Positions 1 to 41,949 of a DNA stretch of 41,949 nt are shown piece after piece. Position 1 is the stretch's first letter. Each line of letters begins with the position of its first letter. A program made the translations under genes and the position numbers. A model generated the notes under the pieces. The model ran no database searches and was not told where the DNA came from. It worked only from the letters and a program-made list of their open reading frames with translations. The stretch comes from a virus (Duplodnaviria > Heunggongvirae > Uroviricota > Caudoviricetes): the IMG/VR virus record IMGVR_UViG_2558860473_000005, positions 1-41,949 of that record. The stretch is one strand, 5' to 3'.

Positions 1-1248
1 ATGGCACTGAATATTCCATTCAGAAATGCGTACTATCGTTTTGCATCCAGTTACTCATTTCTCTTTTTTATTTCCTGGTCGCTGTGGTGGTCGTTATACG
101 CTATTTGGCTGAAAGGACATCTAGGGTTGACAGGGACGGAATTAGGTACACTTTATTCGGTCAACCAGTTTACCAGCATTCTATTTATGATGTTCTACGG
201 CATCGTTCAGGATAAACTCGGTCTGAAGAAACCGCTCATCTGGTGTATGAGTTTCATCCTGGTCTTGACCGGACCGTTTATGATTTACGTTTATGAACCG
301 TTACTGCAAAGCAATTTTTCTGTAGGTCTAATTCTGGGGGCGCTATTTTTTGGCTTGGGGTATCTGGCGGGATGCGGTTTGCTTGATAGCTTCACCGAAA
401 AAATGGCGCGAAATTTTCATTTCGAATATGGAACAGCGCGCGCCTGGGGATCTTTTGGCTATGCTATTGGCGCGTTCTTTGCCGGCATATTTTTTAGTAT
501 CAGTCCCCATATCAACTTCTGGTTGGTCTCGCTATTTGGCGCTGTATTTATGATGATCAACATGCGTTTTAAAGATAAGGATCACCAGTGCGTAGCGGCA
601 GATGCGGGAGGGGTAAAAAAAGAGGATTTTATCGCAGTTTTCAAGGATCGAAACTTCTGGGTTTTCGTCATATTTATTGTGGGGACGTGGTCTTTCTATA
701 ACATTTTTGATCAACAACTTTTTCCTGTCTTTTATTCAGGTTTATTCGAATCACACGATGTAGGAACGCGCCTGTATGGTTATCTCAACTCATTCCAGGT
801 GGTACTCGAAGCGCTGTGCATGGCGATTATTCCTTTCTTTGTGAATCGGGTAGGGCCAAAAAATGCATTACTTATCGGAGTTGTGATTATGGCGTTGCGT
901 ATCCTTTCCTGCGCGCTGTTCGTTAACCCCTGGATTATTTCATTAGTGAAGTTGTTACATGCCATTGAGGTTCCACTTTGTGTCATATCCGTCTTCAAAT
1001 ACAGCGTGGCAAACTTTGATAAGCGCCTGTCGTCGACGATCTTTCTGATTGGTTTTCAAATTGCCAGTTCGCTTGGGATTGTGCTGCTTTCAACGCCGAC
1101 TGGGATACTCTTTGACCACGCAGGCTACCAGACAGTTTTCTTCGCAATTTCGGGTATTGTCTGCCTGATGTTGCTATTTGGCATTTTCTTCTTGAGTAAA
1201 AAACGCGAGCAAATAGTTATGGAAACGCCTGTACCTTCAGCAATATAG
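1..1248 (+). CDS. cscB: LacY-family sucrose:H+ symporter (CscB-like), 415 aa
   Basis: Full-length ORF from window position 1; strongly hydrophobic multi-TM protein whose sequence I recall as E. coli CscB sucrose permease; host gene outside the prophage. Confidence 0.85.
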   Translation: MALNIPFRNAYYRFASSYSFLFFISWSLWWSLYAIWLKGHLGLTGTELGTLYSVNQFTSILFMMFYGIVQDKLGLKKPLIWCMSFILVLTGPFMIYVYEPLLQSNFSVGLILGALFFGLGYLAGCGLLDSFTEKMARNFHFEYGTARAWGSFGYAIGAFFAGIFFSISPHINFWLVSLFGAVFMMINMRFKDKDHQCVAADAGGVKKEDFIAVFKDRNFWVFVIFIVGTWSFYNIFDQQLFPVFYSGLFESHDVGTRLYGYLNSFQVVLEALCMAIIPFFVNRVGPKNALLIGVVIMALRILSCALFVNPWIISLVKLLHAIEVPLCVISVFKYSVANFDKRLSSTIFLIGFQIASSLGIVLLSTPTGILFDHAGYQTVFFAISGIVCLMLLFGIFFLSKKREQIVMETPVPSAI

Positions 1249-27991: not shown

Positions 27992-29410
27992 ATGCCGATT
28001 CAGCAACTTCCGCTTATGAAAGGTGTCGGCAAAGACTTTAGAAACGCCGACTATATCGACTATCTGCCAGTGAATATGTTGGCTACACCCAAAGAAATAC
28101 TCAACAGCAGCGGATATCTTCGCTCATTCCCGGGCATTGCCAAACGTTCTGATGTGAACGGTGTATCGCGCGGTGTCGAGTACAACATGGCGCAGAGTGC
28201 TGTTTATCGCGTGTGTGGCGGCAAGCTGTACAAAGGCGAAAGCGAAGTCGGTGACGTCGCCGGAAGTGGTCGCGTATCAATGGCGCATGGTCGAACATCT
28301 CAGGCGGTAGGCGTTAATGGTCAACTGGTCGAGTATCGCTATGATGGCACGGTTAAAACAGTCTCAAACTGGCCTACAGACAGCGGATTCACTCAGTATG
28401 AGTTAGGTTCGGTTCGTGACATTACGCGCTTACGTGGGCGTTATGCGTGGTCAAAAGACGGAACTGATTCATGGTTCATCACTGACCTTGAAGACGAATC
28501 ACATCCTGACCGCTACAGCGCACAATATCGTGCCGAGTCTCAGCCTGACGGTATCATCGGCATCGGAACATGGCGAGACTTCATTGTCTGCTTTGGTTCA
28601 TCGACGATTGAATATTTTTCCATGACTGGTGCAACCACCGTTGGTGCCGCTTTGTATGTCGCACAGCCATCACTGATGGTGCAGAAAGGTATTGCCGGGA
28701 CTTACTGCAAAACGCCGTTTGCTGATTCCTATGCGTTCATCAGCAATCCGGCAACAGGTGCGCCGTCTGTGTACATCATCGGTTCCGGTCAGGTATCACC
28801 AATCGCCAGCGCGAGCATTGAGAAAATACTACGCTCCTACACTGCTGATGAACTGGCTGATGGCGTGATGGAGTCTCTGCGATTTGATGCGCATGAGCTG
28901 CTGATTATCCACCTTCCTCGCCATGTTCTCGTGTACGACGCATCTTCAAGCGCCAATGGTCCGCAATGGTGCGTACTGAAAACAGGACTGTATGACGATG
29001 TGTACCGCGCTATCGACTTCATTTACGAAGGCAATCAGATAACGTGCGGCGATAAGCTGGAATCCGTGACCGGGAAACTGCAATTCGATATCAGCAGCCA
29101 GTATGACAAGCAGCAGGAACACCTGCTGTTTACTCCACTCTTCAAAGCAGATAACGCCAGATGCTTTGATCTGGAGGTGGAATCATCGACGGGTGTTGCT
29201 CAGTACGCTGACCGCCTTTTTCTCTCTGCAACCACTGACGGCATAAATTACGGTCGTGAGCAGATGATTGAGCAGAATGAACCGTTCGTTTACGACAAAC
29301 GCGTTTTGTGGAAGAAAGTAGGGCGCATCAGGAAAAACATTGGTTTCAAATTGCGCGTTATCACGAAGTCACCTGTCACTCTGTCTGGCGCTCAGATAAG
29401 GATTGAGTAA
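27992..29410 (+). CDS. Head completion / packaged-DNA stabilisation protein (P22 gp10-like), 472 aa
   Basis: Same length as P22 gp10 and conserved synteny. Confidence 0.75.
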
Positions 29411-30363
29411 TGGCGGATTCGAATCTCAATGTTCCGGTAATCATTCAGGCTACACGGCTCGACACATCAGTCCTTCCACGCAATATCTTCTCGCAGTCGT
29501 ATCTGCTTTACGTTATCGCACAGGGCACTGATGTTGGTAACGTGGCTAACAAAGCCAACGAGGCCGGACAGGGCGCTTATGATGCGCAGGTCAGGAACGA
29601 TGAGCAGGATGTCACCCTTGCAGACCATGAATCCAGAATTGAAGCTGCTGAAGCAACTCTCATCAATCATGAACATAGAATTGCAGCAGCGGAAAGCACT
29701 CTTGCAGATCATGAAACAAGGATTACGGCTGCTGAAACAGAGCTGGCTGATCACGAGACGCGAATTGCTGCCAATGAATCTGAGTTAGCAAACCATGATG
29801 CGCGCATAACTCAGAATACAACCGATATCGACGCACTTGATACCAGGCTCACAGCGGCAGAGGGAAGTATTTCGACGCTACAAAGCACAGTTGGTGATCA
29901 CTCAACAAGAATATCTGCGCTTGAGTATGCCACCACGCGCAAGAAATCAGAGGTTGTTTACTCAGGGGTATCGGTAACAATTCCGACAGCGCCTACCAAC
30001 CTTGTTAGCCTGCTGAAAACGCTCACGCCGTCATCCGGCACGTTGGCACCATTCTTCGACACCGTTAACAACAAGATGGTTGTGTTCAACGAGAACAAAA
30101 CCCTGTTCTTCAAGCTGTCGATTGTCGGGACGTGGCCCAGTGGAACCGCCAACAGGTCAATGCAGCTAACCTTTTCCGGCTCTGTTCCTGACACACTGGT
30201 AAGCAGTCGCAACTCGGCGACAACGACCGATAACATCCTGTTAGCTACGTTCTTCAGCGTGGATAAAGACGGCTTTCTTGCCACAAATGGCAGCACGTTA
30301 ACCATTCAGTCGAATGGTGCGTCGTTTACTGCCACAACCATCAAGATAATCGCGGAGCAGTAA
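29410..30363 (+). CDS. Tail needle protein (P22 gp26-like) with heptad-repeat coiled coil and C-terminal knob, 317 aa
   Basis: Repeated [10 protein letters not shown] heptads in the middle; conserved N-terminal tip; extended C-terminal domain. Confidence 0.75.
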
Positions 30364-30818
30364 TGATTCAGTTCAAACCAACGCGAAACATCGACCTGAT
30401 AGAAGCCGTGGGAAATCACCCCGACATTATCACCGGGAGCAACAACGGTGATGGATACGACTACAAGCCTGAATGCCGTTACTTCGAGGTGAACGTGCAC
30501 GGGCAGTTCGGCGGAATTGTTTACTATCAGGAGATTCAGCCGCTTACATTCGATTGCCACGCCATGTACCTGCCAGAGGTTCGTGGATTCAGCAAGGAAA
30601 TCGGGATGGCGTTCTGGCGATACATTCTTACTAACACCACCGTTCAGTGCGTCACATCGTTCGCTGCACGCAAATTCCGCCACGGTCAGATGTACTGCGC
30701 AATGATTGGCCTTAAGCGTGTAGGAACCATCAAGAAATACTTCAAAGGCGTGGATGACGTGACGTTTTACAGCGCCACACGCGAAGAACTAATCGACTTC
30801 CTGAATCACGGGAGATAG
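30363..30818 (+). CDS. Head assembly protein (P22 gp14-like), 151 aa
   Basis: Position and size in the conserved 26-14-7-20-16 order. Confidence 0.6.
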   Translation: MIQFKPTRNIDLIEAVGNHPDIITGSNNGDGYDYKPECRYFEVNVHGQFGGIVYYQEIQPLTFDCHAMYLPEVRGFSKEIGMAFWRYILTNTTVQCVTSFAARKFRHGQMYCAMIGLKRVGTIKKYFKGVDDVTFYSATREELIDFLNHGR

Positions 30819-34978: not shown

Positions 34979-35311
34979 TTAATCATCCATGGATGGATTG
35001 AGCTTATCTCGTGTTGATGTGGCGGTTTTCCCTACATTCCTAAGCCAAGCTTTCAAATCCTTGATATTGTCATTGATTTCATGAATATCTTCCTTTTTTA
35101 ATCTGTCAATATTATTTTCAATAATTTCAATGGATTGCTCAATATCAGATATAGTGAATGATAGTTTGCTCTTCTCATCTGTTATTGAGTTTTTAAGTAC
35201 TTCGTTCTCAGTCTTGAGGTCAGATATCTTTTGCTTTAAAGATGCCAGTTGGCACTGAACCACAATGAGTGCGATAGCTATCACGACAAATGTTGCATAC
35301 ACGCTAACCAC
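34979..35311 (-). CDS. Membrane-anchored coiled-coil protein (N-terminal TM helix then coiled coil), 110 aa; cassette gene C
   Basis: Hydrophobic YATFVVIAIALIVVQ segment followed by heptad-like K/E-rich sequence; GTG start; AT-rich by eye. Confidence 0.55.
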   Translation of the reverse strand: MVSVYATFVVIAIALIVVQCQLASLKQKISDLKTENEVLKNSITDEKSKLSFTISDIEQSIEIIENNIDRLKKEDIHEINDNIKDLKAWLRNVGKTATSTRDKLNPSMDD

Positions 35312-35322
35312 CTTGGTTTTAT

Positions 35323-35676
35323 CTACTTGAGGACTAATCCGTTAAGTGCATCAAGGATTTTAGATACGTAACTACCGAAAATGTAGGTGCAAAAAGCAAA
35401 AACAACCGTGACGACAGCACCGATAGCCTTAATGGTTGTTTTCATTGTGGTGATACTAGTTTCAATACTGCTAAGCCTGGTGTCAATTGACTTCACGTCT
35501 TTTTGAATGATCTCAATGTCACGCTTGATATAGCTGACATCAGACTCTAACTTTGCGACCCTTGATTCCATGCCATCACCTCCTTCGCCTCCAGACCTGT
35601 TCTTATCCTTTGTGTTCTCAGGATGGATACGAGATATGTTTTTTTCACTAATTGATGTTTCAATTATATCAAGCAT
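35323..35676 (-). CDS. Tail-anchored coiled-coil membrane protein (XhlA-like architecture), 117 aa, or 82 aa from the internal start at 35571; cassette gene B
   Basis: Coiled-coil segment then C-terminal hydrophobic helix AIGAVVTVVFAFCTYIFGSYV; strong GGAGG RBS before the internal Met; 8-bp overlap with gene A if the long start is used. Confidence 0.55.
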   Translation of the reverse strand: MLDIIETSISEKNISRIHPENTKDKNRSGGEGGDGMESRVAKLESDVSYIKRDIEIIQKDVKSIDTRLSSIETSITTMKTTIKAIGAVVTVVFAFCTYIFGSYVSKILDALNGLVLK

Positions 35677-36079
35677 CTTTCACATGACTCACGGAAAAGT
35701 AGGCTTGCGCAGAATGCACTAGAGTGTTGTCTTTGCTGATGGATACTCGAATTAAGTAATCCCCGTCAGCATCAAGTTTGCATTTATCGAAATGCATAGA
35801 CATCGATGTTGCCAAGGTGTTCCTGATCTCATTGTGTCCTTTTGCCTTAATCCATACGCCTTTATCACCGCTTACACTGATTTCTAACTCATTCTCGATT
35901 CTATAGAGACAAGCTGAAACCCAATATGGTGTATCATGAATTAAACCGAGAAAGTGAACCTGAAAATCAAGGTCAGTAGTCACAGGTAACTCATCTGTCT
36001 CCATGATTAACATGGGTGATTTTTCATCATTTTCAGACTTATGGTAAGGAAAAAGGAATGCTATTTTTTCAGTGTTCAT
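35669..36079 (-). CDS. Hypothetical soluble protein, 136 aa; cassette gene A
   Basis: Start overlaps the mnt stop by 4 bp (translational coupling); no recognisable family. Confidence 0.55.
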   Translation of the reverse strand: MNTEKIAFLFPYHKSENDEKSPMLIMETDELPVTTDLDFQVHFLGLIHDTPYWVSACLYRIENELEISVSGDKGVWIKAKGHNEIRNTLATSMSMHFDKCKLDADGDYLIRVSISKDNTLVHSAQAYFSVSHVKDA

Positions 36080-37632: not shown

Positions 37633-39441
37633 ATGACAGATTCAATAAATGCCAATGTTGTAGTGAGCATGCCATCGCAACTCTTCACTATGGCTCGTTC
37701 TTTTAAAGCCGTAGCCAATGGCAAAATTTATATCGGTAAAATTGACACTGACCCGGTAAATCCTGAAAACCAGATTCAGGTTTATGTAGAGAACGAAGAC
37801 GGCTCTCACGTTCCTGTTTCTCAACCAATCATCATTAACGCTGCTGGTTACCCAGTATATAACGGACAGATTGCCAAGTTTGTAACCGTGCAAGGCCATT
37901 CTATGGCTGTTTATGATGCGTATGGTGCACAGCAGTTTTATTTTCCTAATGTGCTGAAGTATGACCCTGATCAGTTTGGTCCAGACTTCAAAGAGCAGTT
38001 ATCTCAATCAGGGGAATACATTAATGATGATTCAAAAGGTGATGCATTAATTGGCGTAAGACAGCCCGTTGCCGGGTCGGTAGCTATCACACAGCATGAT
38101 AAAAACGCACAAATAATCAACTTAAAAGATTTTGGTGCTAAGTGCGATGGTGTAACTGATGACACAGTGGCAATTCAGGCTGCTGTAGCTGCTGCGCATA
38201 CTGGTGTCCGTATAGTTCAACCTGCAGGGGTTTGCCTTACATCTCAGCCGTTGTCATTCACTAGTCCTGCATTTTGGTATGGAGATGATGGCGCTCGCAT
38301 TAAGCTCATTAGTGGCAGTCATGACTATGTTATGGAAATTGATCTTCGCGGGCCTAGTGGTTCGTTCTGGGGTTATGGGTCACATATTGAAAACATTATC
38401 TTTGATGGTGGTGGTCACGCAAAAGATGGCCTTTCATTGCGTGGTGTTATCGGAGGTATATTCAAAAATATTCGTGGGACAAATATATCAAGGACCGCTA
38501 TTCATGAATGGTGGACCCAACTTTGCCACTATGAAAATATTCAATGCAGTAATAATATTGAAGCATTCCAAACAACCCCTATTCACGGAATCTTATCTGA
38601 TTGTGAGTTTGGAACTGGTAATGATCGTGGGTCTTCTGCAAATACTTACATGAATACCACTATTGAACATACCTCTGGTAGTGGGATTTGTGGGGTGTTT
38701 ATGTCTAATTGTACATTTATAAATGGCACATCAGAAGGTAACGATATTGGCATTGAGTTTGGTCACGCTACTGATGATAGAAACCAATCAGTTGGGAATT
38801 CAGTTATTGGCATGGATCTTGAAGTTAATTCTTTAACTGATGTGTTATTACATAAAACAACATATGCAAATGACTTTATTGGTCTAAAAGCTGGTTATTC
38901 ATCTCCAGCCATTCAGGTGCAAGGCTCATATGCTAATAGCTTTATTGGTGGAGTAAGCAGTGGTATAGATTTTGACTCATCATCGCATGATAATAAAGTA
39001 ATAGGTATGAATCTTTTAGGCAACGATTCTATCATCGTAGATAACGGGTTAAGAAATTCATATGAGAATATTTTCAATATTTCATCTGGAGCTAAAAAAG
39101 AAAGCACTAACCCTTATCCATCGCGTAGCAACAATATAATTTCATCAAATGGTACTGTGCAAATTAACCCATTTTTATCATCATACTGTGTTGTGTCGGC
39201 TACTGGTTCACCAATTAATGTTACGTCTGTAGCAAAAAAATTAGACGGTGCGACTATTGATATGACTATTCATAACATTTCTGGATCTGATGAATTAATA
39301 GTAAACTGGTCTTCTGACTTCAGAGTTTCTGGATGGACAAGCCCGGCAACAGGGCGCCACCGGTCTATAAGATTTGCTTATGATGCAAACTACGGATACT
39401 GGACTGCTATATCTATGAGTCAGTCAGATATTCTGAACTAA
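37633..39441 (+). CDS. Tailspike protein: P22-type N-terminal head-binding domain plus divergent beta-helix receptor-binding domain, 602 aa
   Basis: First ~115 residues match the P22/Sf6 tailspike N-terminus by recall; the rest has repetitive G/N/S/T-rich strands typical of parallel beta-helix depolymerases. Confidence 0.85.
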
Positions 39442-39453
39442 GATTTATGCTGT

Positions 39454-39476
39454 GGGGGGGATTATTCCCCCTGTTT
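39454..39476 (+). terminator. Terminator between the convergent tailspike and acyltransferase genes
   Basis: Hairpin GGGGGG-attatt-CCCCC followed by TGTTTTACTTT; overlaps the acyltransferase stop. Confidence 0.55.
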
Positions 39477-40595
39477 TACTTTCCTCATATCCACCAGTTT
39501 ACCAGGGATGCTCATAAATATCTTATTTCTAATCTTGTTAGTAAGTATCACTTCAATATATTTATGCGAAAGAAATGCAATAAAAATTGATAAAATTAGT
39601 AAAATAGTGAACCCGTATACATTGTGCATCACACCTGGATTATTAGCCTCAACCTGCCATGAAATGTAACTACCTACCTGGTTATGAAGCAGATACCATG
39701 AGAAGGAAATATCACCAAGCATTACAAAAAATGATGGTGTAATTTTTGTTATAACTTCATCATTTATTACGAACGCCACTAAGAGGAAGTATGCAATGAT
39801 GCCTGTCTTTAAATTATAACCTTCAATAGAACCATTGAAGACTGCAGTCATAAAAATTAATGCCGATATAGCAGTGAATGAGTATTTTAATCTATTGCTC
39901 CATGATTTTGCTGAACGCACTGTGTGCCCAGCAAGGATGCCTAAAGCAAATTCAATTACTATCGGATTTGTTAAAAAGCTAAGTTCTGGAGTACCAGTTT
40001 TATAACCTGAAGTGGATAATGTTACATTTCCAGTCAACATATATCCTACAAGGATAGTTGTCATTATCCATACGACTATGCCAGAGGTTCTTTTATTGAA
40101 TAATAAACAAAGTGCGAATACAAGATAGAAGTATAATTCATAGTTAAGCGTCCATCTAATAACAAATATACCACCAGCATCAACATACAAAGGAGGGTAC
40201 GCATCCGTAAAAGGAGAGAATGTTAAAGCACTCAGTAAGTTTTCCACCTTAGCTTGGTCAACGAAGATTCCAACTTCCCATGTAAAGTAGAAAGCTGTAA
40301 AGAGAGCAATAAAATATGTAGGAAAAATCCTTGTGAGTCTTTCTACGGAAAAGAATATAGCAGACTTTATACCAGATGGCTTACGGCTAGTGATATGCAT
40401 CATAATAAAACCACTTATTACGAAGAACAAATCAACACCAGCAGAACCCCAAGATAAATATTTATTAGGGATAGTTAAATCTCCATACAATGGTGATAAC
40501 CAAAATCTGTAGTGAAAAAGAACTACAGACAATGCAGCTAATCCTCTAAGTATCTGTACTGAGCTAAGTTTATTGTTCATTATTAAACCGATCAC
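39462..40595 (-). CDS. Acyltransferase family 3 (OafA/Oac-like) integral membrane O-acetyltransferase, 377 aa
   Basis: Multi-TM protein with acyltransferase-3-like N-terminal motif (ILRGLAALSVVLFHY); very AT-rich by eye; between tailspike and int, as oac is in Sf6. Confidence 0.75.
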   Translation of the reverse strand: MIGLIMNNKLSSVQILRGLAALSVVLFHYRFWLSPLYGDLTIPNKYLSWGSAGVDLFFVISGFIMMHITSRKPSGIKSAIFFSVERLTRIFPTYFIALFTAFYFTWEVGIFVDQAKVENLLSALTFSPFTDAYPPLYVDAGGIFVIRWTLNYELYFYLVFALCLLFNKRTSGIVVWIMTTILVGYMLTGNVTLSTSGYKTGTPELSFLTNPIVIEFALGILAGHTVRSAKSWSNRLKYSFTAISALIFMTAVFNGSIEGYNLKTGIIAYFLLVAFVINDEVITKITPSFFVMLGDISFSWYLLHNQVGSYISWQVEANNPGVMHNVYGFTILLILSIFIAFLSHKYIEVILTNKIRNKIFMSIPGKLVDMRKVKQGE

Positions 40596-40791
40596 TTTCT
40601 GTAAATGTCATTCACATGATTATGCGATAAAATCCATAGTAATCCATTATAAATTTTTCTATATGAAACATAAGAAAAATTCACTGAGTTGTTGAATTGA
40701 TACATCTCATCTTTCAACGACAATGTCTACAAAACACACAAAGCTTTGCACTGGATTGCAATGATTTGTGTCATTCGATAGTTAATGTGGA

Positions 40792-41949
40792 TCACTCCAC
40801 CTTTTCATCAAGCCAGTCCGCCCACCATTGCATCATTTCTCTGCGCTTATCGAGATACTGAGCATGGTTGTAAATCCCGCGCACAGAACCGCCGTTGGCA
40901 TGTGCCAGCTGCACTTCAATAGCGTCAGCAGGCCATTCGTGCTCGTTCATAATCGTGCTGAATTCATGCCTGAATCCGTGACCGCTTTCCAGACCTTCAT
41001 AGCCGATTTGTTTGATCACAAGCAATACCGCGTTCTCGCAGATTGGCTTCTTCTTATCGTTGCGCCCGGCAAAAACAAACTCTGAGACTGGTTTGGTGAT
41101 TGAGCTTAGCGTAGTGAGAAGTTCAACTACCTGGTCTGACATAGGAACCACATGAATTTTGCGTCCCTTCATCACGCTGGCGTCGATGGTGATAATCCTG
41201 TTTTCAAAATCGACGTTCTTCCATAGCATAGAACGAAGCTCTTTCGTTCTTAGGGCTGTGTAGCGTAAAACTTTGGTCGCAATGAGCGATACGATACTTC
41301 CTGAAAATGTTGCCAGTGCTTTGTTGAATGCCGGGATCTGGTCTGCAGGAAGAAACGGGAAGTTCTTCTTGCGGTATCCTTTCATGGCGTCAGCAAGGTC
41401 AGGTGCCGGGTTATATTTAGCCCTGCCGGTGACAATAGCGTAACGGAAAACCTCGCCGCATCTTCTGCGGGCTTTATTGGCTCGTTCCATTGCACCGCGA
41501 TCTTCAAATCTGCGGATTACTTCCAGCAGTTGCATTGGCTCAATATCCTGAATTTCAAGGCCGCCGATGATAGGTAAAATGTCGTCATCAAACATTTTTG
41601 CAAGTTCAGTCGCATACCCTACTGACCATACTTGCTTCTTGTGCTCGTACCATTCCTTGTAAATCGCACTAAAGGAATTGTTGTTAGACGAAGCCTTTTT
41701 CGCCTTTACCGGATCGATGCCAACCGAGATGTCTTTCCTCGCGGTCCATGCCTTATCCCTTGCCTCCTGCAAAGTCATAAGCGGATATTTTCCTACGGTC
41801 AGTATTTTTTCCTTACCGTCAATCTTGTAGCGAAGCTGCCATACCTTTTTCCCGGATACAGGGACATAAAGGTACAGGCCATTACCATCGAGAAGGCGGT
41901 ATGGTTTTTCTTTCGGCTTTGCTGCTTCAATCTGCTTAACGGTGAGCAT
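40792..41949 (-). CDS. intS: Tyrosine integrase (P4-type phage integrase family; IntS/Sf6 Int-like), 385 aa
   Basis: N-terminal SAM-like domain and C-terminal catalytic domain with conserved R...HGFRH...Y residues; start codon at the last 3 nt of the window. Confidence 0.85.
   Translation of the reverse strand: MLTVKQIEAAKPKEKPYRLLDGNGLYLYVPVSGKKVWQLRYKIDGKEKILTVGKYPLMTLQEARDKAWTARKDISVGIDPVKAKKASSNNNSFSAIYKEWYEHKKQVWSVGYATELAKMFDDDILPIIGGLEIQDIEPMQLLEVIRRFEDRGAMERANKARRRCGEVFRYAIVTGRAKYNPAPDLADAMKGYRKKNFPFLPADQIPAFNKALATFSGSIVSLIATKVLRYTALRTKELRSMLWKNVDFENRIITIDASVMKGRKIHVVPMSDQVVELLTTLSSITKPVSEFVFAGRNDKKKPICENAVLLVIKQIGYEGLESGHGFRHEFSTIMNEHEWPADAIEVQLAHANGGSVRGIYNHAQYLDKRREMMQWWADWLDEKVE

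Follow-up and report, generated by a model that had tools for sequence, protein, structure and literature searches.

The window analysed here is a stretch of 41,949 nucleotides (IMG/VR record IMGVR_UViG_2558860473_000005) which, taken as a whole, is a mosaic of known P22-like E. coli phages, for example CUS-3, Kapi1 and Gally. It contains an intact open reading frame of 317 aa that an earlier note on this DNA had described as an extended tail needle gene (Table 1). At both ends the gene overlaps its neighbours, its ATG with the gp10 stop codon on the upstream side (TAATG) and its own stop codon with the ATG of the gene that follows, an arrangement typical of a translationally coupled late operon. 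Pfam analysis gives the gene order as gp4 (PF11650), gp10 (PF11134), needle, gp14-like (PF11039), gp7 (PF25688) and gp20 (PF16928), after which there is a gp16-sized protein. Downstream (3') of the ejection genes there is an immI region with Arc/Mnt-like repressors and an antirepressor, followed by a tailspike with a P22 head-binding domain, an acyltransferase and an integrase. The position of the needle gene, between the gp10 hub gene and the gene-14-like and ejection genes, matches that in the P22-like late operon.

Table 1. Positions of the needle gene, its parts, its neighbours and other features in the window
Feature	Position	Strand	Evidence or remarks
LacY-family sugar/proton symporter gene	1–1248	+	PF01306; left window edge
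gp10 tail hub gene (PF11134, Phage_stabilise)	27992–29410	+	Pfam; upstream neighbour; structure plugged by the needle
Tail needle gene (P22 gene 26/Sf6 gene 9 homologue, HS1 subtype)	29410–30363	+	317 codons and stop
N-terminal tail-hub-binding plug domain (~residues 1–61)	29410–29592	+	Conserved with P22, HK620 and Sf6 needles
Heptad RNDEQDV with NxxQD polar-core motif (N63, Q66, D67)	29593–29613	+	Homologue alignment
Coiled-coil shaft	29614–29925	+	Seven 42-nt (14-aa) units and RISALE; units 1–5 carry L-x-[DN]-H-[ED]-x-R-I
C-terminal knob, TNF-like jellyroll (~residues 173–317)	29926–30360	+	Pfam, PDB identity, AF2 monomer
DUF2824 protein gene (P22 gene 14 homologue; PF11039)	30363–30818	+	Pfam; downstream neighbour; then ejection-protein genes 7, 20 and 16
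Three small ORFs	34979–36079	-	Low-GC patch
Segment with tailspike (602 aa), acyltransferase and integrase genes	37633–41949		P22 head-binding domain in tailspike
Acyltransferase-3 gene	39462–40595	-	3' of tailspike
Integrase gene	40792–41949	-	

The C-terminal part of the protein matches PF16532 (Phage_tail_NK, 'Sf6-type phage tail needle knob') with E=8e-109. The score is 361 bits against a gathering cut-off of 27 and the profile is covered in full (positions 1–175). At the DNA level the gene shares 98.4% identity, over its full length, with an E. coli HS gene that bears the annotation 'tail needle knob protein'; identity is 98.0% with phage Gally and 95.6% with phages JEP4 and vB_EcoP-720R6. 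The DNA of phage Sf6 aligns to both ends of the gene but not through the shaft. Comparison with the PDB shows that residues 1–139 align to P22 gp26 (2POH, 3C9I and 4ZKP; E about 1e-41 for 2POH/4ZKP), residues 1–79 to the HK620 needle (5BU5) and residues 3–64 to 8EAP.

The nearest known needle is that of HS1, the E. coli HS prophage (EcHS_A0316/WP_000785558.1; knob PDB 4K6B). It has the same 317 aa, the same 16-heptad shaft and the same genomic neighbours, and 313/317 residues are identical. The two proteins differ at four sites (window to HS1: D100E, A107D, T138A and S305A); residue 305 is Ser in the window and in Sf6 but Ala in HS1. The background of the HS1 prophage differs from that of the window in being a different mosaic with another tailspike. 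The gp9 needle of the Shigella phage Sf6 (282 aa; knob PDB 3RWN) shares with the window 96.6% of the N-terminal DNA, 97.7% of the knob DNA, the glutamate pocket described below and the gene order. Its shaft, in contrast, has 11 heptads rather than 16 and is of another sequence type, with ~84% identity over 146 alignable nt. The Salmonella phage P22 needle, gp26, is 233 aa in the 2POH and 3C9I chains, in agreement with the earlier note. Its plug and proximal coiled coil are homologous to the window needle over the aligned residues, and the two share the NxxQD Ca2+ motif, the DHExRI heptad motif, their role and their gene position. In gp26 the tip consists of a triple beta-helix with an inverted coiled coil after it. 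P22 gp26 has no knob and its C-terminal tip domain is unrelated to the Sf6-type knob (PMC3741392).

The N-terminal ~60 residues form a plug domain homologous to that of gp26, with many invariant columns among 29 homologues. N63, E65, Q66 and D67 are invariant across the same 29, and the NxxQD motif coordinates Ca2+ in P22 gp26 (PMC13580157). Heptad periodicity is evident in the parsed shaft sequence. The AF2 monomer has a single continuous helix from residue 42 to 176 (pLDDT >95 over ~70–160) and a beta-strand domain at 179–316. This agrees with the proposal that the C-terminal ~140 residues are not coiled coil, and the PDB knob matches begin at residue 165. A sequencing frameshift, or a C-terminal domain absent from the true protein, had been allowed for; the domain is present and in frame. 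Over residues 165–317 the knob is identical at 152/153 positions to the crystallised knobs of both HS1 (4K6B) and Sf6 gp9 (3RWN). This ~99% identity to solved knobs and the beta domain of the AF2 model show that the fold is a TNF-like jellyroll. The knob domain that had been suspected is therefore real, but already characterised, both as PF16532 and in the HS1 and Sf6 crystal structures. Using the list of residues in PMC3741392, all six L-glutamate-pocket residues are kept at the HS1 positions (E181, K235, S283, D285, L290 and K312), as is the S266-R267-N268 phosphate triad at the tip.

Taken together, the PF16532 match, the knob identity to 4K6B and 3RWN, the DNA identity to E. coli HS, the pocket residues, the gene order and the AF2 model identify the gene as that of the tail needle in a P22-like (Lederbergvirus-type) prophage; among Sf6-like needles it belongs to the HS1 subtype. 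We put the probability of this reading, including the function and the shaft length variation discussed below, at about 0.93. A needle with a knob is already known, and this one is a near-identical copy of the HS1-type Sf6-like needle.

The HS1 needle has been described as a 317-aa protein in which an N-terminal virion-binding domain is followed by a coiled-coil shaft of 16 heptads and a predicted 210 Å, in comparison with 11 heptads in the Sf6 and P22 needles; its TNF-like knob binds three L-glutamates and phosphate (PMC3741392). Cryo-EM of Sf6 shows the N-terminal helical hairpin of the needle as a quasi-sixfold plug in the channel of the hexameric hub (PMC9728967). By homology with these systems, the window needle would be a trimer, as in the homologous crystal structures, and would be incorporated into the virion as a DNA-retaining plug, as in P22 and Sf6. 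The N-terminal ~60 residues would plug the gp10 hub channel and hold the packaged DNA in, the 16 heptads would form a three-stranded coiled-coil shaft of ~210 Å, and the last ~145 residues would form the jellyroll knob with three L-glutamates at the subunit interfaces. At infection the needle would reach the outer membrane first and would then be expelled, so opening the channel.

The earlier note proposed that the knob contributes to host range or to membrane penetration. A strong form of the first idea makes the knob a receptor-binding domain that determines host range, like the fibre knobs of adenovirus and PRD1, with needle length and knob matched to the host surface. The tip is placed to touch the outer membrane first, and in its TNF-like fold it is similar to the knobs of adenovirus and PRD1 (PMC3741392). 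However, P22 chimeras bearing either knob, from HS1 or from Sf6, assemble and show normal infection of Salmonella, from which it follows that species specificity does not come from the knob, and mutations in the glutamate pocket have no apparent effect on virion function (PMC3741392). In the homologue alignment knob sequences are nearly invariant across the family, and the published divergence is ≤4.9% (PMC3741392). The comparison of tailspikes points the same way. Among the best 80 IMG/VR loci with a window-type needle (95–100% protein identity), 64 have a downstream ORF with a P22 head-binding domain. The 63 receptor-binding parts compared (62 loci and the window; one short ORF was dropped) fall into 40 clusters at ≥50% identity, and three loci whose needle protein is 100% identical to that of the window have three different tailspikes. 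As the needle is 317 aa in every one of these loci, the scan shows one needle with many tailspikes and not the converse. Nevertheless, ~40 tailspike types with one needle make the needle an exchangeable module uncoupled from O-antigen specificity, and this reinforces the view of a generic part rather than a host-range determinant. We consider it most unlikely that the knob is a host-range-determining receptor-binding domain; a host-range role is not supported, being contradicted by the published chimeras and by this comparison. A role in DNA delivery has partial support in the literature. The HS1-knob chimera releases K+ at 40–70% of the wild-type rate (PMC3741392), which indicates that the tip affects the kinetics of DNA delivery. 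The reading that we prefer, an HS1-type needle, would thus have a tip that tunes the speed of DNA delivery and does not set host specificity.

The tailspike of the window itself, which has a P22 head-binding domain and a pectate-lyase-like body, clusters with 0/62 of the tailspikes from contigs with the same needle. The acyltransferase-3 gene that follows it (34% GC) is probably for O-antigen modification. In Klebsiella aerogenes and Serratia marcescens, too, there are records of 317-aa needles with Sf6-type knobs, 76–77% identical. The 2013 paper describes knob-bearing P22-like phages as infecting only Escherichia or Shigella (PMC3741392), so the hosts of the Sf6-type knob needle are now wider than in that description.

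The central coding region had been described as periodic, and this is correct. Tandem Repeats Finder reports a period of 42 nt at 29613–29715 (2.5 copies, 70% matches), and a repeat search found four copies at an exact spacing of 42 nt, with a fifth 147 nt beyond, at 61–74% identity to the reference copy. In the reading frame, starting from 29614, seven 14-aa units and then RISALE make up the shaft. The unit is therefore two heptads and not one, as had been claimed. There are matches to a degenerate D-H-E-x-R-I coding motif at 29623, 29665, 29707 and 29749, all four in phase in the shaft. The motif has 7 matches in the window against 0.59 expected, which is clearly non-random. Units 1–5 are listed as carriers of the L-x-[DN]-H-[ED]-x-R-I form of the motif, and units 5–7 are described as being without DHExRI.

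The repeats are neither perfect nor near-identical at the DNA level, and here the earlier description fails. Pairwise nucleotide identity between the seven units is 31–79% and the longest exact repeated word is 9 nt. The 21-mer quoted as a repeat unit occurs once, with one mismatch, and there is no second copy at ≤3 mismatches. At positions where units have the same amino acid, they share the codon in 32/81 cases in comparison with 29.3 expected from the codon usage of the operon (p=0.30). There is no excess of codon sharing, and therefore the DNA periodicity follows from the protein repeat alone; for the same reason, a recent duplication within the window gene is ruled out.

A comparison of repeat number among relatives had been suggested, and the number is not invariant. 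Among the best 120 cluster representatives from a protein database, ranked by similarity to the window needle, lengths of 254, 268, 282, 289, 296, 303, 310, 317, 331, 338 and 345 aa occur. When shafts are delimited by conserved anchors the steps are almost always 7 aa, and the heptad register is kept in 108/112. The four shafts that are out of register (79, 92, 103 and 110 aa) are single-cluster sequences, each on only one or two contigs. Parsing heptad by heptad shows that the indels are block-wise, with relatives gaining or losing blocks of 14, 28 or 49 aa in the window-type shaft region. For the HS1-type shaft, 303-aa alleles arise from three different 14-aa deletions, 289-aa alleles from two different 28-aa deletions and a 268-aa allele from a 49-aa deletion. 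A 345-aa allele arises from a 28-aa duplication, and the 331-aa allele has that duplication together with a 14-aa deletion. Among alleles with the Sf6-type shaft, those of 254 and 268 aa have lost 28 and 14 aa, respectively, and those of 296, 310 and 338 aa carry duplications of 14, 28 and 56 aa. The best 120 representatives record no fewer than a dozen in-register events that are independent of one another.

The DNA of six HS1-type variants shows one or two clean indels of 42, 84 or 147 nt in each. The shaft is otherwise 98.8–100% identical to that of the window, in comparison with 90–99% for the N-terminal segment and 95–97% for the knob, a contrast between shaft (99%) and flanks (90–97%) that is partly explained by the choice of variants by protein similarity to the query, which favours genes with the window shaft type. 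The junctions lie within the repeated motif and slide over 2–8 nt of microhomology (AGAATTG, CATGAA, TGATCAC and CTTGCAGA). One junction has 2 nt of microhomology against the window allele but 7 nt against the allele seen in variant locus L005. The 345- and 331-aa alleles have perfect 84-nt tandem duplications with a private substitution in both copies, and these duplications are therefore recent.

The earlier note suggested that the repeats promote length variation by slippage or recombination. The variation is as proposed, spanning 254–345 aa, in register and with junctions in the repeated motif, but the substrate is microhomology of 2–8 nt instead of perfect repeats. The comparison shows that related prophages have gained and lost whole 14-, 28- or 49-aa blocks of the diverged 42-nt units time and again. 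The anatomy of the junctions would be explained if the DNA had slipped during replication, or recombined over short homologies, at microhomologies in the repeated DHE(T/S)-RI coding motif, short as these are, and if selection had then kept almost only heptad-register products.

In principle, the length differences could be artefacts of short-read assembly, through repeat collapse or expansion, or could reflect decayed prophages. Many of the variant clusters have only one member, a single contig carries the 345-aa form and the four out-of-register shafts could be errors or pseudogenes. However, the units of 42–84 nt are shorter than typical reads, and 108/112 shafts in register is unlike random assembly error. 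The 303-aa form recurs in 31 index blocks, and there are 17 contigs with the 289-aa form and 7 with the 268-aa form; the contigs that carry these three alleles (7 to >24 independent contigs for each) have intact flanking gp10 and gp14-like genes. Additionally, the Sf6 (282 aa) and HS1 (317 aa) sequences are finished, and in the case of HS1 the gene was cloned and the knob domain expressed. Artefact or decay is therefore a highly unlikely explanation of the length differences.

The alleles are not equally common. In a spread sample of complete E. coli genomes, the only full-length matches are of the 954-nt (317 aa) and 849-nt (282 aa) classes; the other matches are knob-only in O157:H7, or are P22-type needles that match only over the N-terminal ~200 nt. 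The needle is exactly 317 aa in 80/80 of the best IMG/VR loci. Alleles of other lengths are therefore a minority, and the picture is one of two stable major forms with a cloud of minority, probably young, in-register variants. This bears on whether the variation is a programmed high-frequency switch, working like a contingency locus by slippage on perfect repeats. Relatives with perfect 84-nt tandem duplications do exist, and the dozen or more independent in-register events would fit such a switch. Against this, the repeats in the window are diverged (31–79% identity, no exact repeat of more than 9 nt and codon sharing not above expectation), the complete-genome sample is dominated by two length classes, and the 317-aa allele of the best 80 IMG/VR loci is stable over 3–5% sequence divergence. 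We regard a switch as extremely improbable.

A further suggestion is that the shaft is an evolutionary hot-spot, in which in-register two-heptad indels occur faster than point substitutions and length is adaptive or tunable rather than drifting neutrally around two forms. We consider this doubtful. If length were tunable, it might govern, for example, how far the needle reaches through a layer of O-antigen or capsule, or when DNA ejection takes place.

There is also mosaicism inside the needle gene. In loci L001–L006, against the high identity of the shaft and the lower identity of the N-terminal segment and knob given above, the region 3' of the gene is 65–91% identical to the window. The pattern suggests that the shaft may move as a cassette, and the selection of variants adds to the contrast.

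The gene has little discovery value, as it is effectively the HS1 needle, for which there is a 1.1-Å crystal structure of the knob and a genetic analysis of function from 2013. The only additions to the literature consulted are a range of ~7–20 heptads in comparison with the 11–16 stated in 2013, and the DNA-level junctions; Bhardwaj 2009 may cover part of this. The wider census of lengths (254–345 aa, nearly all in register), together with the microhomology junctions, may be useful in a modest way to those who work on phages, as may the finding that one needle goes with ~40 tailspike specificities.

Pfam scans of several other window genes gave no reverse transcriptase or other diversity-generating match, and a PADLOC scan of five of those genes gave nothing convincing. 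Between the gene-16 homologue and immI (arc/mnt/ant) there is a patch of low GC (37–40%) with three small ORFs, encoding proteins of 110 aa (hydrophobic N-terminus and coiled coil), 117 aa (coiled coil and hydrophobic C-terminus) and 136 aa (no family). None of the three has a Pfam or PADLOC match above cut-off. The patch sits roughly where P22 carries sieA, and the ORFs are a candidate moron or superinfection-exclusion cluster. Finally, the symporter gene at the left window edge (E=1.7e-193) has a matching gene in the phage records vB_EcoP-611R6 and vB_EcoP-683R2, where the annotation is sucrose transporter; the symporter gene probably belongs to the host flank, or is cargo adjoining the prophage end.
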